From the IMG/VR virus record IMGVR_UViG_3300007735_000800, positions 32,001-96,000 of that record: 64,000 nucleotides of DNA; one strand, given 5' to 3'. The notes under the pieces were generated by a model. The model saw nothing but the letters and a program-made list of their open reading frames with translations, did not search any database and was not told where the DNA came from. Shown here piece after piece: positions 2,770-59,457 of the stretch (positions are counted from its first letter, which is position 1; each line of letters begins with the position of its first letter). This stretch comes from a virus. A program made the position numbers and the translations under genes.

Positions 2770-4068
2770 ATGACAACAATACCCCCAACCTTTAATTCTT
2801 TTGTGACCCCATCAGTATATTCGACACAAAATACAACAAATGATTTGTATGTAGGTTTTGTAGCTGGAAATACTTATGTTGTACCTACCTTTGGAAATGC
2901 GGGTGCTTGCGCTACCACGGTTGATCCCGGTGGTCTATTCGGATGGTTAATATATTCAAGAACAAGTATTGCCAACCCTGCAAAAGGTTTAACGAGTGAC
3001 CAATATCTTTTATATTCTACTCCAACAGATTTCTTGAATGACTTAAATGCACTAAAAGGTGTGACACAGTGTGTTTTGTCTTTGGCTAATTCGGGTGGGA
3101 CCTATTCCTTCTTTACAAGAAATGCGGCAACCTCTAGTAATGTAGGTTCAACAATAACACCAACAACTATAGGTGCTGACTTTTTACATGCTTTGCATGC
3201 TCTTGCATATGGTGTAAATTTGGTAATAACCGGAACAACCGGTGGTTTAGAAAATTTTGATTTAATAAATTCAAGTAATATAGAAGTTTTGATGGGACAA
3301 ACTGCAAATGCATCTCTGTCTAGTTATTTGTTAGACAATCCATATGTTGTTGGAATATTCCCTTCTAATGGTTATACTGCAGCAAATTTTGATTTATTTA
3401 TTCCCAGTGGCGTAACAAATGCAGATTTTACTGATAGAATTTTCAATATTTACGGTAATGTAAACTACAACATTTCAACATCAACATTATACGCAAATTC
3501 TACGATGAATTATACTACGACACCAGTAGCCCATGTTGTAGGTGCATTTGCAAATTCTAAAAATCAAAATCAATACTATTTAACAGTTGCCGGTGACAAT
3601 CTTTCAGTACCGTTAAATGGAAAAATCTCCAATCCAATATCATGGTACACAACTACAAAGAAAGACATATTTAAAAAGAACAGAGTAAATTTTTATACTT
3701 ATGTTTCCACTCCTTTCTTGGGTTCAGACTTAGTCGGTGCCACTGCCGGAACAAGCACTTCTTATACATCCGATGAAAGAATTGGTGTTGCAAATCTAAA
3801 GAATACAATAGAAAAATCAGTCAATGATATTTTGTTGACATATTTATTCAATGTAAATAACTCGATTACCAGGGCTTCTATAACCACTCAAGTTGAACTT
3901 TATATTGAATCTATAAATGAATATTTGGTTCCCTCCGCAACAATAATAACTTGTGATGGAACCAATAACACAGATAATTCTTCCACACTCACTGTCGATA
4001 TAACAGTAAAACCAATACAATCTGCATCTGAGCTAGTGATCAGGGTTTCGGTTTCTGACGTAGCATAA
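2770..4068 (+). CDS. gp18: Tail sheath protein, short and divergent
   Basis: C-terminal sheath domain (KNRVNF...DERIGV...YLFNVNN...TR...CDGTNNT...DITVKP); position between gp17 and gp19. Confidence 0.8.
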   Translation: MTTIPPTFNSFVTPSVYSTQNTTNDLYVGFVAGNTYVVPTFGNAGACATTVDPGGLFGWLIYSRTSIANPAKGLTSDQYLLYSTPTDFLNDLNALKGVTQCVLSLANSGGTYSFFTRNAATSSNVGSTITPTTIGADFLHALHALAYGVNLVITGTTGGLENFDLINSSNIEVLMGQTANASLSSYLLDNPYVVGIFPSNGYTAANFDLFIPSGVTNADFTDRIFNIYGNVNYNISTSTLYANSTMNYTTTPVAHVVGAFANSKNQNQYYLTVAGDNLSVPLNGKISNPISWYTTTKKDIFKKNRVNFYTYVSTPFLGSDLVGATAGTSTSYTSDERIGVANLKNTIEKSVNDILLTYLFNVNNSITRASITTQVELYIESINEYLVPSATIITCDGTNNTDNSSTLTVDITVKPIQSASELVIRVSVSDVA

Positions 4069-24958: not shown

Positions 24959-25528
24959 GTGAAAAAACCAAAGAAAAAAAAATCTAAACCGTCTGATGCT
25001 GATTATGTAGACAATCAGGCGTTATATGATGCTTTGGTAGAATTTAAAAAGAAGATAAGAGAATCTGAAAACAGCGGAAAGAAAAAACCAAAACTTCCCG
25101 ATTTTATAGGCGAGTGCATACTAAAAATTGCATCTCGCCTTTCTTATCGACCAAATTTTGCCAACTATCCTTATAGAGAAGAAATGGTATCTGACGCAGT
25201 TTTAAATTGTATTACTTATATTGAAAATTTTGATCCAAAACTCTCAACCAGTCCATTTGGTTATCTAACGCAAATATGTTGGTTTTCATTCGTTAGGATT
25301 ATAAACAAAGAGAAAAAAGAAAAATATGTTCAATACAAGTTTGCAGAACAAAAAAATAATAAAGATTTTCAAAATTGGTTTAATGAAGTATATGCTGGTA
25401 TTGACATTGGAAGAAAAGATTTCTTTGGTTTGACCGATTCGGATATGGAACGGTTTGATAAAATGACTGAACCTAAGGTAAAGAAGAAAAGAAAAAGAAA
25501 AGTAAAAGAAGACATGTTTGAACTATGA
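24959..25528 (+). CDS. gp55: Late transcription sigma factor
   Basis: YVDNQALY, FIGECILKIA.RLSYRPNF.NY.YREEMVSDA and PFGYLTQICWFSF.R.I.KEKK motifs. Confidence 0.95.
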   Translation: MKKPKKKKSKPSDADYVDNQALYDALVEFKKKIRESENSGKKKPKLPDFIGECILKIASRLSYRPNFANYPYREEMVSDAVLNCITYIENFDPKLSTSPFGYLTQICWFSFVRIINKEKKEKYVQYKFAEQKNNKDFQNWFNEVYAGIDIGRKDFFGLTDSDMERFDKMTEPKVKKKRKRKVKEDMFEL

Positions 25529-48497: not shown

Positions 48498-48728
48498 ATG
48501 GACGAAAACGAAGACTTATCAGAGGAAGACATTTTAAAGGCCAGCGAAGCTTATTTAATGTTCGTCCATAGATTTAGTGAATATGTAAAAGAAATGGACC
48601 CAAAGCTCTGGGAAAGAGCCAGAGAATATGCAGCTGATTTTACAAAAATACCAGGTGTAAAGATTGAACTTGTAGATGAGGATATTAATGATGACACAGA
48701 CGGAAACCACAAAAACGGATCAGACTAA
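48498..48728 (+). CDS. Small acidic hypothetical protein
   Basis: 76-aa ORF between primase and thyX. Confidence 0.55.
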   Translation: MDENEDLSEEDILKASEAYLMFVHRFSEYVKEMDPKLWERAREYAADFTKIPGVKIELVDEDINDDTDGNHKNGSD

Positions 48729-49422
48729 TAAAGTTTTAGTTTTGGATCACGGCCACGTTGATTTGATTGATTGGATGGGTTCAGATCTTAGTGTGGTCAA
48801 TGCAGCCAGAGTTTCTTTCAATAAGGAAAGTTCCTGGGATTATGCAGATAGCCATGTTCCAATCAAGTCTTTGCCAGAAAAAGATGCTAAACTAATAAAG
48901 TATCTTGCAAAGCATGATCACTTTACTCCATTTTGTCACCCTCAGATTAGTATAAGGGTCAAGTGTCCAATTTTTGTTCGTGCTCAACTAGGCAAACACC
49001 AGATTGGTCTTGTTATGAATGAGGTTAGCCGGCGCTATGTAACATTTGAACCTGAAATTTATACTCCTCTCTGGCGGAATGCACCAACTGACGGAGCCAA
49101 GCAGGGAAGCAGTGGTGCAATCGAAGATATGGATACTTGCATTCGTATGCGGCAGGAGTATGATGCCGTTGCAAAAGAATGTCTGGATCTTTATAGTAAA
49201 CTTATTCAAGATGGTGTTGCACCCGAACAAGCAAGATCCATTCTTCCCCAAGGAACTTATACGGAATTTGTGTGGACTGGTTCTCTCTACGCATTTGCCC
49301 GCATTTATAACCTGAGAATCGATGCTCACGCACAATGGGAAATTCAGCAATATGCAAAAGCAATTGACAAATTAATTGCTCCCCTTTTCCCAGTTTCGTG
49401 GCAAACTCTAACAACTAAATAA
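48676..49422 (+). CDS. thyX: FAD-dependent thymidylate synthase
   Basis: VVNAARVSF, HFTPF, PIFVRAQLGKHQ, NEVSRRY, PEQARSILP and HAQWEI motifs; true start may be a few codons downstream. Confidence 0.93.
   Translation: MRILMMTQTETTKTDQTNKVLVLDHGHVDLIDWMGSDLSVVNAARVSFNKESSWDYADSHVPIKSLPEKDAKLIKYLAKHDHFTPFCHPQISIRVKCPIFVRAQLGKHQIGLVMNEVSRRYVTFEPEIYTPLWRNAPTDGAKQGSSGAIEDMDTCIRMRQEYDAVAKECLDLYSKLIQDGVAPEQARSILPQGTYTEFVWTGSLYAFARIYNLRIDAHAQWEIQQYAKAIDKLIAPLFPVSWQTLTTK
49414..49421 (+). promoter_or_regulatory. Late promoter variant (ACTAAATA) upstream of the RNR gene
   Basis: Followed by an AGGAG SD. Confidence 0.45.
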
Positions 49423-49447: not shown

Positions 49448-51337
49448 ATGGCAGAAATTTTATCACCGTTTCAATCGTTTATTTTCATCTCACGCTACTC
49501 CAGATGGCTTCCCGATTACAATCGCAGAGAAAGTTGGGAGGAGTGCGTAGAGCGTTGGTGGAATTACTTTACGAACAAGGTCCCTCAACTTGCAGAACGC
49601 CCTGATGTAAAGGATGCAATTCTGAATCTTGAGGTTCTTCCATCTATGCGTAGTCTGATGACTGCTGGACCAGCATTAGACCACGACAATACTTGTTTGT
49701 ACAACTGCTCTTATTTGCCAATTGATTCTCTTGAATCATTTGCTGAGTTGTTTGTCGTTCTCATGAATGGAACTGGCGTTGGTTATTCTGTTGAGCGTCA
49801 ATACACAGACAAACTCCCAACAGTTTCAAGCAAGATTGAGAAGCACTTCAACGTGACTTACGTTGTTGAAGATTCAAAGGAAGGCTGGGGCAATGCAGTC
49901 AAGTTCTTGATGGATCATCTATATGCAGGTCGCCACATCAAGTGGGACTTGAGCAAGATTCGTCCTGCTGGTGCAAGACTCAAGACATTTGGTGGTCGTG
50001 CCAGTGGCCCAGCACCACTTGACAATTTGTTTAAATTCCTTGTCAAGGTTTTCTACAACGCACAAGGACGCAAGTTGACTGCTCTTGAATGCCATGATAT
50101 TTGCTGCGCCATTGCCAATGCTGTGATCGTTGGTGGTGTTCGTCGTTCTGCCATGATTTCTCTCAGCGATTTGTCTGATCGTGAGATGGCTCACTGCAAG
50201 AGTGGTGCATGGTGGGAGCAGGCTGGTTTCCGCTCATACGCAAACAACTCTGCGGTATATCGTGGTCGCCCACCGATGGGTCAGTTCCTTGAGGAGTGGA
50301 CATCACTGTACAACAGTCACAGCGGTGAGCGTGGAATGATTAACCGCAGAGCCTTGCAGGAACAAGCAGCCAAGTGGGGCCGCGACGAAAACTGTGAATA
50401 TGGAACAAACCCGTGCTCAGAGATTATTCTCAAGCCATTTGAGTTCTGCAATCTTTCAACTGTTGTCGTTCGTCCCGATGATACTGCAGCAACTTTGAAG
50501 AAGAAGATTGAGATTGCCACGATCATAGGAACTGTTCAATCTACTTTCACGAACTTCCCATATCTTCGTCCAGAGTGGAAGAAGAATTGTGAAGATGAAA
50601 GATTGCTCGGTGTAAGCATGACAGGGATTTATGACAACAAACTTACCAGTGGTCTTGAAGGTAAGCCAAAGTTGATCCGTCTACTTGAAACCCTTCGTGA
50701 TCATGCAACAGCAACAAATCTCAAGTGGGCAGAGAAGCTTGGTATCAACCCAAGCAAGTCAATCACTTGCGTCAAGCCAGAGGGAACAACTTCTTGCTTG
50801 GTGGATTCTGCATCAGGGCTACACCCAAGATATGCGGATTATTATTATCGTAGAATTCGCATCGACAAGAAGGATCCAATCTACAATCTCATGAAGGATC
50901 AAGGCGTTCCTTGTGAAAATGATGTTATCAACCCAGGAAACACAGCGGTCTTCACCTTTGCGATGAAGGCCCCCAAGGGAACAATCACCACGGAAGATCT
51001 CCGTGCATTGGATCATTTGGATCTGTGGAAGACATATCAGGAACACTATTGCCACCACAAGCCATCTATTACCGTGAACTACAGGGACTCTGAGTTCCTT
51101 GAGGTCGGCCAGTGGCTGTGGGAAAACTTTGATGTGGCAACAGGAATTTCGTTCCTTCCTGGTGGTGATAGCCATACATATGCTCAGGCTCCATTTGAGC
51201 AAATTGATTCTGCTACATATTCGGCACATCCAAAGGTTAAGGTTAACTTCAAGGATCTGTCTAAATATGAAGCAGAAGACAATACTGAGGCAGCAAAGGA
51301 ATATGCGTGCAGCGCTGGCGGTTGTCAGATAGTCTGA
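49448..51337 (+). CDS. nrdJ: Class II (adenosylcobalamin-dependent) ribonucleotide reductase, monomeric RTPR type
   Basis: LPSMR, NC, GTGVG, GG.RRSA, TNPCSEI, FCNL and TCVKPEGT motifs; no adjacent nrdB. Confidence 0.88.
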   Translation: MAEILSPFQSFIFISRYSRWLPDYNRRESWEECVERWWNYFTNKVPQLAERPDVKDAILNLEVLPSMRSLMTAGPALDHDNTCLYNCSYLPIDSLESFAELFVVLMNGTGVGYSVERQYTDKLPTVSSKIEKHFNVTYVVEDSKEGWGNAVKFLMDHLYAGRHIKWDLSKIRPAGARLKTFGGRASGPAPLDNLFKFLVKVFYNAQGRKLTALECHDICCAIANAVIVGGVRRSAMISLSDLSDREMAHCKSGAWWEQAGFRSYANNSAVYRGRPPMGQFLEEWTSLYNSHSGERGMINRRALQEQAAKWGRDENCEYGTNPCSEIILKPFEFCNLSTVVVRPDDTAATLKKKIEIATIIGTVQSTFTNFPYLRPEWKKNCEDERLLGVSMTGIYDNKLTSGLEGKPKLIRLLETLRDHATATNLKWAEKLGINPSKSITCVKPEGTTSCLVDSASGLHPRYADYYYRRIRIDKKDPIYNLMKDQGVPCENDVINPGNTAVFTFAMKAPKGTITTEDLRALDHLDLWKTYQEHYCHHKPSITVNYRDSEFLEVGQWLWENFDVATGISFLPGGDSHTYAQAPFEQIDSATYSAHPKVKVNFKDLSKYEAEDNTEAAKEYACSAGGCQIV

Positions 51338-51344
51338 TCCTCAA

Positions 51345-51418
51345 TCCTCGGTAGCTCAGCTGGTAGAAGCGGGAAGCTGTTAACTTCCATGTCGCTGGTT
51401 CGATCCCAGCCCGAGGAG
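51345..51418 (+). tRNA. trnN: tRNA-Asn (GTT), CCA end not encoded
   Basis: Acceptor stem TCCTCGG/CCGAGGA; anticodon stem GGAAG/CTTCC with GTT at 51379-51381; T arm GCTGG-TTCGATC-CCAGC. Confidence 0.93.
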
Positions 51419-51421
51419 CAT

Positions 51422-51453
51422 AAAAAAATCCTTCCCTTGCGGGAAGGATTTTT
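51422..51453. terminator. Rho-independent terminator, probably bidirectional
   Basis: AAAAATCCTTCCC-TTGC-GGGAAGGATTTTT. Confidence 0.88.
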
Positions 51454-51461
51454 CATAAATA
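51454..51461 (+). promoter_or_regulatory. Late promoter (CATAAATA) preceding the hairpin element
   Basis: Ends 5 nt before the first base of the long helix. Confidence 0.65.
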
Positions 51462-51466
51462 TTTTT

Positions 51467-51556
51467 GTCAGCGGCGGTGGGATATTTCCACGCATTCCTT
51501 TTGGGCCAGTCTAAGTATAAACCCATCGTAATGCTAAGGAACCACCGCTGCTGGCC
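51467..51556 (+). ncRNA. Putative novel rod-like ncRNA (about 90 nt)
   Basis: 14-bp closing helix GUCAGCGGCGGUGG/CCACCGCUGCUGGC with two G-U pairs; inner helices UUCC/GGAA, GCAUU/AAUGC and UGGG/CCCA; no ORF; GC-rich in an AT-rich genome. Confidence 0.6.
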
Positions 51557-51560
51557 AAGG

Positions 51561-51568
51561 TATAAATA
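51561..51568 (+). promoter_or_regulatory. T4-type late promoter (TATAAATA)
   Basis: Exact match upstream of the RuvC-like gene. Confidence 0.7.
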
Positions 51569-51571
51569 TAT

Positions 51572-52132
51572 ATGTTCTTTATGCTCGTAGGGATTGACTA
51601 TTCTATAACCAGCCCAGCCATCTGCCTTTTTGATGAAAAGCGGGAATTCTGCTTTCAAAATTGCTCATTCTATTTTTTGACCAATACTAAAAAATTTGCA
51701 ACAAAAATTGCGCCAAATATTAATGGTGAAGGTTTTGAAGAATATGCCCACGATACAGAAAGATTTGACACAATTTCTGAGTGGGCAACAAATTTATGTG
51801 TTGGTGCTGCTGATGTTGCTATAGAAGGTTATTCATATGGATCTCATGGGAGAATTTTTAATTTAGCTGAAAATTGTGGTATACTCAAGTATAAGCTCCA
51901 TAAGCTCGCCGTTCCAGTAACCGTCGTGGAGCCATCCAGAGTGAAGAAACTCGCCACAGGTAAAGGAAACGCTGATAAACAGGCAATGTACGAAGCCTTC
52001 CTAAAAGAGACAAAGACCGATTTGATTTCGGTCTTTGAGCAAAAATCTTTGACTAACCCAGTTACTGATATTATCGACAGTTATTATATTCTTAAGTATC
52101 TGTTTCAGACAAGAAATAATCAGAATAGTTAA
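51572..52132 (+). CDS. RuvC-like (RNase H fold) nuclease / Holliday junction resolvase
   Basis: VGIDYSITSP, AIEGYS, KK.ATGKGNA.K and DI.DSYY motifs; start may be 51581. Confidence 0.8.
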   Translation: MFFMLVGIDYSITSPAICLFDEKREFCFQNCSFYFLTNTKKFATKIAPNINGEGFEEYAHDTERFDTISEWATNLCVGAADVAIEGYSYGSHGRIFNLAENCGILKYKLHKLAVPVTVVEPSRVKKLATGKGNADKQAMYEAFLKETKTDLISVFEQKSLTNPVTDIIDSYYILKYLFQTRNNQNS

Positions 52133-52388
52133 AAGTTTTAAATTCGTATAATGGTTTAAAATCGGGTGTTGGAGTTAATACCACATTTACAGTTTTAATA
52201 TCATCCAAAATTAAATAATTTCCCTCAAATCCAAAAGATTCAGCCAAGGGTATTATTGGTATATCTGAGGTTTGAACTAGAAGATTTGAATCTGGACTTT
52301 CAAGTACGTGTCCAAGAATATTCCCTTCATGGAGAATATTATATACAGTGCAATTTTTCATTATAATCTTTTGAAGTTCGTAGCTCAT
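52092..52388 (-). CDS. Hypothetical protein
   Basis: 98-aa ORF in the reverse operon. Confidence 0.5.
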   Translation of the reverse strand: MSYELQKIIMKNCTVYNILHEGNILGHVLESPDSNLLVQTSDIPIIPLAESFGFEGNYLILDDIKTVNVVLTPTPDFKPLYEFKTFNYSDYFLSETDT

Positions 52389-52396
52389 AAAATTAT

Positions 52397-52699
52397 TTAG
52401 TGTCTTTCAAATCGACCTGCATTGAAAGTTCTGGATTGTTCTAATCTATCCTGCATGCTCTGAGGAGCTACCTTTTTTACTCTATTGATAACATCATTCC
52501 ATGCATTGCCATATACCTTTAATGGGGTGAGTGTGGTATCGTAGGCAACGCTATTAGCCTGTTCCGACCAATCCTTCACTACCTTTTTCTTTTTGCAACT
52601 TGGGCATGGTTCCCCTATGGGTTTACTGTTTTCCGCCATCTTCAAAAATAATTCAAATTTATGATCGCAAGCTTCGCATTTAAATGAATAGTTAGGCAT
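52397..52699 (-). CDS. FmdB-family zinc-ribbon protein
   Basis: MP.Y.F.CEAC.H.FE and CPSC motifs. Confidence 0.8.
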   Translation of the reverse strand: MPNYSFKCEACDHKFELFLKMAENSKPIGEPCPSCKKKKVVKDWSEQANSVAYDTTLTPLKVYGNAWNDVINRVKKVAPQSMQDRLEQSRTFNAGRFERH

Positions 52700-53189
52700 T
52701 TTTGTCTTTCTTGAATGTTATTAGCATATCATCAAATAAGAATCCATAAGAAGGTTCTTTTGGTTTTGATTTTAGTTCCATTTTAGCTTCTTTTGGGGTT
52801 CTGTTTCCCTTAAACAAATTGCAATCTTTGCAGGCTGCTACCATGTTTGTCCATGTAGACCCACCACCTTTCGACCTGGGTATCATATGGTCAACTGTGG
52901 CGGTTTTATCGCAAAGATCAATACCACAATACTGACATGCATATTTATCACGTTTAAATATGTTTTTTCGTGAGGGAGCCACTTTTTTAAATGGCAATTT
53001 TACATAATACTTCAAAATCAATACTTTAGGTATTTTAATAATTTTTGATACGGATACAACTTCGTAATATTCCCCTATGGAATCATCAGCCCACACTTTA
53101 TCTTTTGTAAGTAATTTAAAAGCCTTTGAAATCGTAATGATATTCAGGGGTGTACTGTCTTGATTCAACAGGAGAACCTGTTTCTTCAT
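52692..53189 (-). CDS. HNH endonuclease (McrA/HNH_5-like)
   Basis: VLLLNQD start; RDKYACQYCG, TVDHMIPRSKGG..W.N...AC..CN..KG; likely ATG at 53189. Confidence 0.88.
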   Translation of the reverse strand: MKKQVLLLNQDSTPLNIITISKAFKLLTKDKVWADDSIGEYYEVVSVSKIIKIPKVLILKYYVKLPFKKVAPSRKNIFKRDKYACQYCGIDLCDKTATVDHMIPRSKGGGSTWTNMVAACKDCNLFKGNRTPKEAKMELKSKPKEPSYGFLFDDMLITFKKDKNA

Positions 53190-53199
53190 ACTTCTTAAG

Positions 53200-53219
53200 T
53201 ATTTATGTAAATCTAAATA
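53200..53219. promoter_or_regulatory. Back-to-back late promoters (CATAAATA on minus, TCTAAATA on plus)
   Basis: TATTTATG at 53200-53207 and TCTAAATA at 53212-53219, in a 40-nt divergent gap. Confidence 0.6.
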
Positions 53220-53229
53220 TTTTACAGCC

Positions 53230-53916
53230 ATGGATAACAAGAATAATAGACAATTTTTTTGGGAAGTCAAGCAATTTTTTAATAAACCTCAGTTGAACGA
53301 GTCTGCTACTCCAAAACCGGATTTACTCAATACAGTAAAAAGTATAATGAGTTCCGACAGAGGGATAGACGGTGGAACTGAATTTAAAGTGCGAGAAGGA
53401 ATTATAAATTCTGGAAGAGATTTGAAACAAAAAACTGCTGATCTTTTAGACAGCTACAGTCATAAAAAATATACACAGACACCTTTGTCTTCAGGAAAAG
53501 GTCAAAACAGAACCGGTAATTTGTTTAACATAAATGAACAAAATATAGATGTAAAAAAACCAAAAGTAACTACTGAAAAAATTCTTGGGTTGGCTGCACA
53601 AAAACAAGATAATGAAGCCATGAATTATAGTTTCAATGCAACAGCTCCCGGAATGCAAAAGGTAAATTTTCCACAAAATCAAAAATATGCTGTTCAAGGA
53701 ACAAATAGAAAAAGTGGAATAAAGTCTGATGTTTATTCTATGGCCAAGGAAAGATTAGCTCTTCAAAAAATGTATAGCAAAATTGCAACTCCTAGACAAA
53801 TAAAAACAACAGGTAACGAAGGAAATGTTGGAGTCAATGTAACTTCCAAGTTGAGCAGTCAAGCTCCAGTAAATAAAACTGATCCGAGCCAATTAAACGC
53901 ACAAGAACTATTATAA
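53230..53916 (+). CDS. Hypothetical basic protein, putative internal head protein
   Basis: QLNE and INEQ (L/I-x-E) motifs; behind a late promoter. Confidence 0.5.
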   Translation: MDNKNNRQFFWEVKQFFNKPQLNESATPKPDLLNTVKSIMSSDRGIDGGTEFKVREGIINSGRDLKQKTADLLDSYSHKKYTQTPLSSGKGQNRTGNLFNINEQNIDVKKPKVTTEKILGLAAQKQDNEAMNYSFNATAPGMQKVNFPQNQKYAVQGTNRKSGIKSDVYSMAKERLALQKMYSKIATPRQIKTTGNEGNVGVNVTSKLSSQAPVNKTDPSQLNAQELL

Positions 53917-56511: not shown

Positions 56512-57076
56512 ATTAAAAAATATGGAAGATTTTGTTAATAGAAGAGGTTCCAAGTATTGGATTATGATGAATGACAGCTCAAAGGCCAAACTACACAGAG
56601 AAGCTCATATTAAAAAATATGGTGGATTTTTTGAAAAACAGGATAGATTTTTTATTTGGAGATCGCCAGTAGAAGAAAAAAATGGTTATTGGCTGAAAAA
56701 TATTCATACTAACGAAAAAACTTTCTTCAGCAATATGAAAGAATTTGGGGAAAAGAATGGCCTTACTGCTGTAAAAATATGTGAACTTTTAAATGGAAAA
56801 AGAAAAACATATAAAGGATGGACTGCGGTAGAGATAAGAGAAGTCAAGGATGGAGTTGGTTCCAATATAAAAGCCAAAAATGAACCAAAAAAGAAAATAA
56901 AGGTTTTTGAAGGTGCAACTTTCCAAAATATGGAAACAAAGCAAGTGTTCTTTGTTGATAATATAAGTGAGTACGCAAAAGCAAATAATATCAATGGCGG
57001 AAATTTATATAAAGTCGCCAGGGGTAAGATGAAAAGCTACAAAGGTTTGAAACTTTATAACCCACTAGAACCTTAA
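56498..57076 (+). CDS. Protein with two NUMOD1-like DNA-binding repeats, no nuclease domain recognised
   Basis: NMKEFGEKNGL...KICELLNGKRKTYKGW and NISEYAKANNI...NLYKVARGKMKSYKG. Confidence 0.65.
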   Translation: MEIRELKNMEDFVNRRGSKYWIMMNDSSKAKLHREAHIKKYGGFFEKQDRFFIWRSPVEEKNGYWLKNIHTNEKTFFSNMKEFGEKNGLTAVKICELLNGKRKTYKGWTAVEIREVKDGVGSNIKAKNEPKKKIKVFEGATFQNMETKQVFFVDNISEYAKANNINGGNLYKVARGKMKSYKGLKLYNPLEP

Positions 57077-57082
57077 AATTAT

Positions 57083-57090
57083 GATAAATA
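57083..57090 (+). promoter_or_regulatory. Late promoter variant (GATAAATA)
   Basis: 6 nt before the ATG at 57097. Confidence 0.6.
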
Positions 57091-57096
57091 ATTTAG

Positions 57097-59457
57097 ATGA
57101 ACTTCAAAGATTTATTAAAATTAACAGAAGAAAGCCGCACCAAGGCAGATTCTTTCCGTACAACTGGTGAAGCAACTCAAAAAGAGCGAGCAAAGTCTAG
57201 CGCTCCAGATGCAAAAGCCAAAGATGCCGCAAGAAAGCGTGTAGAAAGATCTAAAAAACTTCCAAGGGATAGAATGCCAAAGGAGCAACTCATCCGAGAA
57301 GTTATCGCAGTAAGAACAGCCTCTGGTAGAGTACAATTAATCTTTAAAGATTCTTTCAATAAAAATGTACATACTAAAATAAATCGTGGCGACACTCTTA
57401 CCATGGAGGAAGCCAGATCTTTCACCCAGGAGGATGGGTTTGAACAAACAGGTGCTTCAAAACTTTTGTTTGGAGATGTCAAAACAAAAGAACCAACGGA
57501 TAAAAGAGTAGCAAAAAAGGGGGAAGAGGGAGAAGAAAAGGAAGCTGAAGCCGAGGCAGAGCCTGAGCCCCTTGAAAAACCAGAGAAAAGAGCAAAAAGA
57601 CTGTCTCCAGAAGAAATATTTGATTTGATGAGCCAAATGGGTCCAGAACAATTGGCTCAAATGCCATTTGAGGTCAGACAGCAATATTTTAAACAAGTAA
57701 GAAATCCACCTTCAAATGTTGATTTTGATAACGCATCATTTGAAACTTTAAGCACAAAATTTGGTATCAATCCAATATCATCGGTTCCATACAATCAACA
57801 AGTTTTAAATGCATTGGTATTCTTGGCTAAGATAAAATCTGGTGCCAGCGAACAGGAGCTGGGTACATATACAGCATTAGCCCCAAGTGCACTGGAGTTT
57901 ACAAAAAATGCATTCCTGCAGGCAAAGAAAATATTGTCACAAATAGGTGAACAATGCATTCAAAACTTAATATCAACAATTGAAAATGGAAGCAAGAGCA
58001 CCTTCAGTGAGGGTGGCGTTGATATGGAATGTGGAAATTATAAATTTAAAATGTCCGTTGGTGGTGAAGTCTCTTTGACCACAGATAAGTTTAATCAAGA
58101 AGGAAAAGGAATAAGAGGAATTATTGCCACCGCTATAAATCAAACTCTAAACAATCCTGAAACCATGAATGACCCAAAAGTGAAGGAATTTATATCAACT
58201 TCAGGACAAGTTGGATCAAAATTTGGCCAAAAATTAATAAATCAACAAACATTTTCATCTTTAAAGAATTCACCAGATGTTATAGAACAATTGAAGCAAA
58301 CAATGGTCTTTGGAGAAAATGGACAAGCATTGGGACCTTATGTTGATTCAAAAGGAAATCTTAATAAATTTGCATCTTTTGAGAATTATGAAAAAGAAAT
58401 AACCAAAGATGCTTCATCTTTGTTTAAATCCTCTAAAGATAAACCAAATGGTTTTGCATCAAATTTTGTAAAAACTGTTTTGAAAATGTTTTACAGGGGT
58501 GATGGAATAAAACAACCAGAATTTGCGCCAACACACATGATAACACAAAATGGGGTATTTCCCATGACGGATGCCTATTTTGATGAAATATCAAAAACTG
58601 CAGTTTTAACAATGAACAATGTTAAGCCACTGATCAGTGCTGCAAACATAGAATCGGGAAAGAAAAAACCATCTGAAAGATTGGCTCAATTTGCAACCGT
58701 AGTCGAAGAAACACAAAAGCAAAAAGAACCAGATATTTTTATTGATAGATCAAATATAAATCCATTGCAATTAGCAATGGCTTCTATATCACAAAGCATG
58801 GAATTTGATATCAATGCCAGTCTTTTACCTGGATTCTCTCCAAAAGACCTTAATGCTATACAATATAATATAGTAAGAATCGGTAAAAAGACTGTAAGAA
58901 TCCCAGTTGAGAGAAATGACACAGTTACAAATGAGATAATGGCAGAGAGTCATATACTGGTAAATGATATTTTAGTTGAATCTTTGACAAATAATTTTGT
59001 TTTGAATACATTGCTAGCATCAAGATTGATGACTAAAGATGAAGCAATATCAATTACTTCTGAAAACTTTTTGCTGGAAAGTGCAAATCCGATAAGATCA
59101 ATATATGAAAGAGTATTGACCAGAGTTAACAAAAATCCAGAGATGTTGATTGCAGTATTGAACAAATACAATTCTTATCTCTATGAAAAATATGTCCGTG
59201 ATTACAAAATGGAATACCGAAATTATCATGGAAAAGCAAAACAGAGAAAAGAAAGAGCAAAAAGAACAGCAGCTAGAGAAAATCTCATTAAAAAGGGAAG
59301 AGTAAAAAAGGGAGATGGTAAAGATATTGACCATAAAAAACCACTAAGAAGTGGTGGTTCAAATGGTATAAATAATTTACGAATCAGAAATAAATCTGAA
59401 AATAGAGCTGATAACGGCCACAAAAAAGGTGAAAAACAAAACAAGGATTGGAAATGA
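57097..59457 (+). CDS. Large putative internal head protein with C-terminal HNH nuclease domain
   Basis: N-terminal MNFKDLLKLTEE; C-terminal DIDHKKPLRSGGSNGINNLRIRNKSENR (HNH). Confidence 0.65.
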   Translation: MNFKDLLKLTEESRTKADSFRTTGEATQKERAKSSAPDAKAKDAARKRVERSKKLPRDRMPKEQLIREVIAVRTASGRVQLIFKDSFNKNVHTKINRGDTLTMEEARSFTQEDGFEQTGASKLLFGDVKTKEPTDKRVAKKGEEGEEKEAEAEAEPEPLEKPEKRAKRLSPEEIFDLMSQMGPEQLAQMPFEVRQQYFKQVRNPPSNVDFDNASFETLSTKFGINPISSVPYNQQVLNALVFLAKIKSGASEQELGTYTALAPSALEFTKNAFLQAKKILSQIGEQCIQNLISTIENGSKSTFSEGGVDMECGNYKFKMSVGGEVSLTTDKFNQEGKGIRGIIATAINQTLNNPETMNDPKVKEFISTSGQVGSKFGQKLINQQTFSSLKNSPDVIEQLKQTMVFGENGQALGPYVDSKGNLNKFASFENYEKEITKDASSLFKSSKDKPNGFASNFVKTVLKMFYRGDGIKQPEFAPTHMITQNGVFPMTDAYFDEISKTAVLTMNNVKPLISAANIESGKKKPSERLAQFATVVEETQKQKEPDIFIDRSNINPLQLAMASISQSMEFDINASLLPGFSPKDLNAIQYNIVRIGKKTVRIPVERNDTVTNEIMAESHILVNDILVESLTNNFVLNTLLASRLMTKDEAISITSENFLLESANPIRSIYERVLTRVNKNPEMLIAVLNKYNSYLYEKYVRDYKMEYRNYHGKAKQRKERAKRTAARENLIKKGRVKKGDGKDIDHKKPLRSGGSNGINNLRIRNKSENRADNGHKKGEKQNKDWK

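Follow-up and report, generated by a model that had tools for sequence, protein, structure and literature searches.

A covarying four-helix RNA rod behind a late promoter of uncultured freshwater T4-like phages, with a counterpart inside a protease gene

Introduction

Upstream of a Holliday-junction resolvase gene in an uncultured T4-like phage, about 90 nt fold into a long RNA hairpin whose first base coincides with the predicted start site of a late promoter. The question that this locus raises is whether such a segment is a separate non-coding RNA, as was proposed when it was first noticed, or a part of the message that follows it. The window analyzed here is a stretch of 64,000 nt, bases 32001-96000 of a 126-kb IMG/VR record that is estimated to be ~70% complete and that comes from a T4-like myovirus. 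Its gene set includes a gp43-type DNA polymerase, a gp20-type portal, a gp23-type capsid, a gp22-type scaffold, a terminase, and a sheath protein. The clade that carries the rod is one of uncultured freshwater T4-like (Kyanoviridae-like) myoviruses.

The Locus and Its Late Promoters

On the + strand of the window, the genes for ThyX (48676-49422) and a class II ribonucleotide reductase (RNR; 49448-51337) are followed by tRNA-Asn(GTT) at 51345-51419, called by both ARAGORN and Rfam, and by an intrinsic-terminator-like hairpin at 51424-51453. The latter folds as a perfect 13-bp stem with a 4-nt loop, between an A-run and a T-run; it marks the end of the RNR/tRNA-Asn unit and lies outside the rod, as part of its context. 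Equivalent hairpins precede the element in most relatives. As a palindrome with both runs, the hairpin could terminate transcription in both directions; it was not called by a simple terminator scan.

Immediately after this hairpin comes a distal T4-type late promoter, P_L1 (CATAAATA, 51454-51461, +), then five T's (51462-51466), and then the RNA rod itself, an 89-nt structure of four helices (51467-51555, +) that is delimited by its fold, by covariation, and by a covariance model, R1, described below. The predicted start of P_L1 transcripts is at ~51467, that is, at the first base of the outer helix, P1. The rod is followed by a 3′ tail, CAAGG (51556-51560), whose GG end is conserved (AAGG here) and which forms a sequence resembling a Shine–Dalgarno (SD) motif 10 nt 5′ of the first ATG. 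A proximal late promoter, P_L2 (TATAAATA, 51561-51568, +), ends 3 nt 5′ of that ATG, and its predicted start, ~51574, falls at or after it. The gene that begins there (51572-52132, +) encodes a RuvC-like Holliday-junction resolvase (phrog_159, E 2.5e-28) of 186 aa when counted from the ATG at 51572.

The resolvase gene has two in-frame ATGs three codons apart (51572 and 51581). The second is invariant in the relatives (M-L-[VI]-G-[IV]-D), while codons 2 and 3 vary freely. A 2-nt insertion throws the first ATG out of frame in L013, L014, L018, and L124, and in a distant group the gene starts at the position of the second ATG. The start may have been misannotated; alternatively, translation may begin at both ATGs, much as T4 gene 49 yields two nested products.

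The element lies in a hyperplastic region rich in homing endonucleases, marked by HNH genes downstream and, in relatives, upstream. Just 3′ of the resolvase, the opposite strand carries an HNH endonuclease gene and two small genes (52692-53270, 52397-52699, and 52092-52388, all −), one of the small genes encoding a zinc ribbon; HNH genes also stand directly 5′ of the element in L020, L032, L034, and L075. Among the relatives, the upstream neighbor may be tRNA-Asn with a terminator, an HNH gene with a terminator, another gene on the same strand with a stop codon that overlaps P_L1, or a divergently oriented gene. Consequently, the tRNA is only a neighbor in this phage, its linkage to the rod is not conserved, and the parallel with the tRNA-linked stable RNAs of T4 that the initial annotation had drawn loses its basis. 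Where the upstream gene is divergent (L009, L012, and L086), the rod is intact, and only P_L1 can transcribe it. The gene 3′ of the rod is usually the resolvase, and another gene has been inserted before it in L036/L092, L062, L072/L118, L079/L159, L108, and L143. A second, truncated copy of the element was observed at L008:1461-1579. It consists of the promoter, the 5′ strands of P1-P3, and the complete P4 hairpin, and is followed by unrelated sequence and another late promoter ahead of an inserted gene for a 425-aa protein. This half-copy suggests that genes are inserted, in the manner of cassettes, when the element recombines internally.

The reading of the octamers as late promoters follows from their distribution. 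The window contains 27 copies of ATAAATA on its + strand and 9 on its − strand, tracking gene orientation, and the motif is found 5-28 nt 5′ of the genes for the major capsid protein (gp23-like), the scaffold (gp22-like), a sheath-like protein, and others. The window also encodes a homologue of the T4 late sigma factor gp55 (24986-25345, +; 56986-57345 of the full record, G000), with 35% identity to T4 gp55 (E 1.8e-17). Given the motif before late structural genes and the gp55 homologue, TATAAATA can be read, at the level of sequence, as a T4 late promoter. Both octamers at the locus have the layout of that class, in which the start lies ~5-7 nt downstream and there is no −35 element, and the scan called no sigma-70-like site on the + strand. 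At several places in the window (11419, 28286, 36155, 57084, and 51562), octamers stand only 3-7 nt 5′ of the next ATG. Transcripts from promoters so close to the start codon would have hardly any leader, or none, and no SD sequence, and this would hold for many of the late mRNAs of the phage.

P_L1 is a constant companion of the rod. Its core, TAAATA, is invariant in 34 aligned variants, the promoter is found upstream of every non-coding copy read, and its spacing to the rod is fixed at 5-6 nt in all of them. The proposal that the rod has a late promoter of its own, with the +1 at the base of the helix, thus holds, the predicted +1 being 51467. On the other side, a second late promoter and a co-directional gene are always found within ~5 nt 3′ of the rod. 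P_L2 has the consensus sequence in 54 of ~66 variants, is of the CTAAATA type in 4, and is displaced in L143; in 5 further variants, representing ~21 contigs, its core is mutated (TATAGATA or TATAAGTA). The resolvase in these ~21 contigs must be read from P_L1 through the rod. In addition, neither a terminator scan nor reading of the sequence found an intrinsic terminator after P1, where CCAAGG is followed directly by the promoter. Since no terminator follows the rod and P_L2 can be mutated, the rod is physically the 5′ leader of the late resolvase mRNA. The idea of a discrete non-coding transcript, as put forward at first, finds no support in this arrangement, in which the transcript would continue into the resolvase; on sequence alone, the rod might in addition be released as a separate RNA.

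Structure of the Rod

P1, of 14 bp, pairs 51467-51480 with 51542-51555. After a 5′ bulge (51481-51485), the rod continues on the + strand with P2 (51486-51489/51538-51541), P3 (51492-51496/51530-51534), and P4 (51502-51505/51522-51525), and closes with an apical loop (51506-51521) that carries a conserved 8-nt core. The only non-Watson–Crick pairs of P1 are U51468-G51554 and G51473-U51549. The 14-bp helix with two G-U wobbles and the three inner helices that had been described from the letters of the window thus match the sequence exactly. The largest internal loop measures 5 by 4 nt. The + strand folds with −42.9 kcal/mol (z = −4.94), as good a value being reached by 0 of 200 shuffles, and the − strand folds more weakly (−37.7 kcal/mol, z = −3.6). 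R1 scores the rod at 105.9 bits and finds exactly one copy in the 126-kb genome.

The apical loop had been compared with the core of a late promoter. Such a promoter-like loop does exist in this phage, but it is not conserved: what the homologues share is only the 8-nt core, UCGAAGUA, which reads UCUAAGUA in this window.

Other local structures were considered and rejected. An alternative small hairpin (51477-51491) followed by a T-rich stretch was called terminator-like by the scan, but in the L069/L075 lineage its pairs are disrupted and no compensating changes restore them. A palindromic loop that could form a kissing dimer would need a 4-6-nt palindrome that is absent from this window and from several relatives. 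A pseudoknot between the tail and the internal loop shows no covariation (variants with an ACGG tail have the same loop), and its segments lie ~23 bp apart along the rod. A T-loop would have T54 as its first position, where U, A, and G all occur among the homologues; ARAGORN and Rfam, moreover, show no cloverleaf or T-arm in the rod, in agreement with the earlier remark that it has no tRNA-like signature.

Comparison with known RNAs and genomes gave little. At the gathering threshold of Rfam 15, the tRNA alone passes and no family is found over the rod, and in a permissive scan of 51250-51750 nothing on the + strand matched the rod at a meaningful E-value; the search that had been recommended for this RNA therefore matched no known family. 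Likewise, the tRNA was the sole match in a DNA similarity search against 50,697 deposited phages. The nearest isolate, as judged by the resolvase protein, is the myophage Pelagibacter phage Mosig (48% identity), whose locus has no intergenic space and, by R1, no rod. A search of the 126-kb genome for antisense targets of the apical loop found only chance 8-10-mers in AT-rich coding sequence. The rod is thus a well-supported phage RNA motif that is apparently undescribed. A published set of 8,495 unnamed candidate structured RNAs, mined from IMG/VR intergenic regions (PMC10690425), may already include it.

Homologues and Covariation

A search of IMG/VR with the resolvase protein yielded 80 loci with 69-96% identity, and in 49 of these the element lies directly 5′ of the resolvase start, as 33 distinct sequences. 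In a plain MAFFT alignment analyzed with RNAalifold, all 10 predicted pairs of the outer helix show compensatory double changes. The closer subfamily was then represented by 23 distinct rows, aligned by MAFFT (A2). In this alignment, 94.0% of the cells of the four-helix structure are paired, vs. 86.0% in shuffles and 26-53% in slid controls; 9 pairs have changed on both sides, and covariation is 0.303, compared with 0.155 in shuffles, of which 0 of 500 reach so high a value.

R1 was built from A2 and recovered a second, more divergent non-coding subfamily (B) as well as a third type (P) within a protease coding sequence (CDS). Scanning IMG/VR with two patterns and then with R1 brought in dozens of further copies and further stem variants; more than 60 sequence variants of the rod occur in related IMG/VR contigs. 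In a 50-sequence alignment fitted to the model (A4), 94.9% of the cells are paired (34-56% in slid controls), compensatory changes on both sides are seen in 25 of the 28 pairs, and covariation reaches 0.521, vs. 0.204 in shuffles; these values lean toward the model by construction, and the MAFFT counts are the independent support. The independent MAFFT alignments support P1, P3, and P4, and P2 is invariant within subfamily A. Several different P1 cores exist within that subfamily, and compensatory changes are seen there among members that share the same deletion junctions. Covariation, whose absence from homologues would have spoken against the initial annotation, is thus present in both kinds of alignment.

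Conservation also extends to unpaired positions, namely the 8-nt apical core, the U-rich 5′ strand of the P3/P4 internal loop, and the CA after P4. The C-G pairs of P2 are kept as well, and so is a GG 3-5 nt past P1, which is invariant in A1.

The kind of mismatch that is tolerated indicates which molecule is under selection. Among the cells of the helices, G-U or U-G occurs 86 times and A-C or C-A 15 times. This excess shows that the + strand folds as a single strand, and it excludes a double-stranded cruciform; selection on the RNA rather than on a DNA palindrome, as had been argued from the two wobbles of P1, is borne out. In sum, the rod is a + strand structured RNA kept by purifying selection on base pairing.

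A Coding Version in a Protease Gene

Some loci seemingly lack the element in front of the resolvase. In these (L006, L022-L029, L064-L068, and L073-L082), R1 matches with 28-44 bits (E 1e-9 to 1e-5) at 615-715 nt 5′ of the resolvase, inside a gene. The order at such loci is a terminator, a late promoter, 8 nt, an ATG, a gene for a 265-aa protease, a late promoter, and the resolvase. The protease (L025:2188-2985, for instance) is trypsin-like and has a lipoprotein-type signal peptide, and its gene stands after the RNR/tRNA-Asn unit and before the RuvC-like gene. A secreted protease in the late operon of a T4-like phage is unusual in itself. The rod occupies codons ~33-66, in frame, and the Pfam trypsin match covers residue 74 onward. 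The coding rod folds with −42 to −51 kcal/mol (z = −5.6), its compensatory changes alter the protein, P3 of L006 differs from that of the others, and an AGG equivalent to the non-coding tail follows it here too. That the same rod is translated in relatives had been missed.

The protein sequence offers a hint as to which version came first. The 3′ arm of P1 encodes D-x-Y-x-C-V-G, which alignment shows to be invariant in protease homologues at 31-44% identity, and P4 with the apical loop corresponds to a ~7-residue insertion in the near protease group. The distant group, L222-L227, also has the protease just 5′ of the RuvC-like gene, and R1 finds no rod in it. A short, ORF-sized spacer of ~100 nt with a hairpin-like stretch was observed there (~3266-3400); it separates the stop codon of the protease from the late promoter that serves the RuvC-like gene. 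Since the 3′-arm motif is kept in distant protease homologues that have no rod, the non-coding element is probably, as far as sequence comparison tells, a relic of the protease mRNA that has been kept under structural selection after gene loss. Both non-coding subfamilies share their junctions, which read promoter/T-run/P1 on the 5′ side and P1/xxRGG/promoter on the 3′ side. In the simplest history, the protease would have stood upstream of the resolvase in the ancestral arrangement, and the rod would have arisen within the 5′ part of the protease mRNA. One lineage would then have undergone two deletions, one from the protease promoter to the rod and the other from the rod to the resolvase promoter. 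After this loss of the protease, the two promoters and the structured segment would have been kept, with compensatory evolution maintaining the rod. Its maintenance in this way after the protease was lost implies a function that would be independent of the protease.

A strongly folding palindromic segment that is translated in some genomes recalls the Rickettsia palindromic elements (RPEs), which are in-frame elements in coding genes and multicopy mobile repeats. Unlike RPEs, the element is single-copy at one orthologous locus, for which reason a mobile palindromic repeat (MITE- or RPE-like) was rejected, and the direction of change is apparently from coding to non-coding.

Possible Roles of the Rod

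The leading reading, held tentatively on the basis of sequence, is that the rod may act in cis as the 5′ leader of the late resolvase message. Late transcripts from P_L1 would start with the fully paired rod and run into the resolvase or into another inserted late gene, and the paired 5′ terminus would shield the message from 5′-end-dependent decay by RNase E/RppH or RNase J. Moreover, the P_L1 transcript would offer the SD-like GG tail and the first ATG, both of which would be lacking from P_L2 transcripts. In bacterial and phage mRNAs, 5′-terminal stabilizing stem-loops, such as that of the ompA leader, are simple hairpins without conserved loop sequence. Like them, the rod is a helix at, or within a base or two of, the +1, forms the head of an mRNA, and has no terminator after it. 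Unlike them, it has sequence-conserved loops and is also found inside a coding region. Four helices and such loops are superfluous for a passive 5′ stabilizer and count against that role; the sequence-conserved apical loop and the U-rich internal loop suggest an additional protein or RNA partner. In the translated protease mRNA, the rod lies ~110 nt inside the message, so it cannot cap the 5′ end there unless the message is processed. In addition, the predicted folds leave the first ATG open whether or not the rod is present (unpaired probability 0.69-0.86 in all transcript versions), and thus no strong translational switch is evident.

Several other roles can be weighed against this cis-acting leader. 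The one with the next claim, which seems somewhat unlikely, is a discrete late small RNA acting in trans: the P_L1 transcript would be trimmed in the AU-rich stretch to a hairpin of ~90-95 nt, whose conserved loops would bind and titrate some factor of the host or the phage (a nuclease, RNA polymerase, or a defense protein, for instance). The rod has its own invariant promoter with the +1 at the base of P1, its loop sequences are held while its stems turn over, and it persists whatever gene comes next; P_L2, right downstream and of consensus sequence in 54 of ~66 variants, means that the next gene is not strictly dependent on P_L1, and survival of the rod as protease coding sequence points to a role of the RNA itself, independent of neighboring genes. 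Nevertheless, the 3′ end of such an RNA would be defined neither by a terminator nor in any other way, the version in the protease gene lacks a separate promoter, and no complementary target stands out in the phage genome. The analogy with 6S RNA, which had been suggested together with a decoy function, fails. 6S RNA has ~180 nt and a large central bubble that mimics an open promoter, and the rod resembles it only in its rod-like shape: it has 89 nt, no such bubble (its widest internal loop being the 5 by 4 nt one), no Rfam match, and a promoter-like loop that is not conserved among its homologues. A related reading, which appears rather doubtful, is that the protease-mRNA structure was exapted after gene loss as an autonomous late trans-acting non-coding RNA with its own gp55 promoter, and that its conserved loops capture a factor from either host or phage (a ribonuclease, a defense sensor, or the late transcription machinery, for example). 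It is improbable that the rod serves as an endonuclease processing site, cut by RNase III within the helix or by RNase E beside it, through which the stability of late polycistronic RNA on its two sides would be uncoupled or tuned, as happens at the intercistronic RNase III sites of T7 or at lambda sib. A ~30-bp rod broken by internal loops does resemble phage RNase III substrates such as the T7 R sites, an AU-rich single-stranded stretch comes after P1, and a cleavage site would serve as well within a CDS as in an intergenic position, in keeping with all three contexts. On the other hand, most loci have a terminator just upstream that leaves little RNA to separate, a cut inside the protease mRNA would destroy the message, and RNase III does not need a conserved apical loop.

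The remaining alternatives are less probable still. T4 genes e, soc, 49, and I-TevI have inhibitory leader hairpins with embedded late promoters (PMC3014915), and the present locus shares with them a late promoter of the TATAAATA type combined with a stable helix just 5′ of a late gene. By the same mechanism, read-through RNA would pair P_L1 with the SD-like tail, adding 7 bp to P1 and masking the RBS, and late P_L1 transcripts, which are devoid of that strand, would be translated. In favor of this, the downstream gene encodes a Holliday-junction resolvase and corresponds in function to gene 49, which is among the four T4 cases (PMC3014915). The extended helix is also predicted, with the AAGG tail unpaired at a probability of 0.12 in read-through RNA and 0.40 in P_L1 RNA. 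However, in the T4 cases the SD and/or the AUG lie inside the helix, whereas here the AUG is outside and predicted to be free in all versions; the T4 late promoter lies within the 5′-strand region, whereas P_L1 precedes the whole rod, so that P1-P4 still form; and the rod, with four helices and conserved loops, is far larger than the T4 leader hairpins and is followed by a second promoter. In addition, little read-through is left to repress behind a strong upstream terminator or, in L009, L012, and L086, a divergent gene; the added 7 bp are weak and do not covary; and neither the four-helix rod nor the version in the protease CDS would be explained. On these predicted features, the element is not a member of the T4 e/soc/49/I-TevI class, and masking of the RBS is very unlikely to be its role. 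About as little can be said for a DNA-level element, a single-stranded DNA hairpin or a recombination hot spot that shuffles genes in the manner of the PeSL/PmSL cassettes of T4-like phages, which are multicopy, have early or middle promoters, and carry a short terminator stem-loop 5′ of the promoter (PMC2839356, PMC4122927); it merits very little probability. The locus is highly mosaic, with HNH genes, the 425-aa gene, and others abutting the element. Variable genes on both sides and the L008 half-copy, which has its own promoters before an inserted gene, associate it with indels and gene replacement, as is the case for PeSLs, and a terminator hairpin, a promoter, and a stem-loop likewise stand together at the borders of shuffled genes. 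A DNA function would also be indifferent to coding status. Unlike PeSLs, which are multicopy with early sigma-70 promoters (PMC4122927) and show no covariation, the rod is single-copy in 126 kb, has late promoters, and covaries over 90 nt 3′ of its promoter. Furthermore, the strand-asymmetric tolerance of G-T (86 to 15) excludes a double-stranded cruciform, and the covariation keeps pairing instead of sequence, which recombination homology would not select. Finally, it is hardly credible that the segment is a functionless protease relic or a small ORF. The element does derive from coding sequence, and an ORF of 41 codons (51465-51590) in the ancestral frame spans it in this window, but close relatives differ by indels of 1 and 2 nt, located in the bulge and in the apical loop, that change the reading frame and leave the nucleotide sequence conserved; the small ORF was rejected for this reason. 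Compensatory changes, moreover, go on in the non-coding subfamily after the deletions, and phage genomes do not retain 90 nt of junk trimmed at both junctions exactly to a helix.

Significance

The rod is an apparently new RNA motif tied to the late-transcription program of abundant freshwater T4-like phages. The same fold is translated in a protease gene and, in sister lineages, stands as a trimmed non-coding segment between two promoters, which amounts to a natural experiment in the passage from an mRNA structure to a stand-alone element. If the reading as a cis-acting leader is true, late resolvase expression in these phages would be tuned otherwise than by the hairpin of T4 gene 49. If, instead, the exapted structure acts in trans, the rod would be a phage non-coding RNA born from coding sequence.
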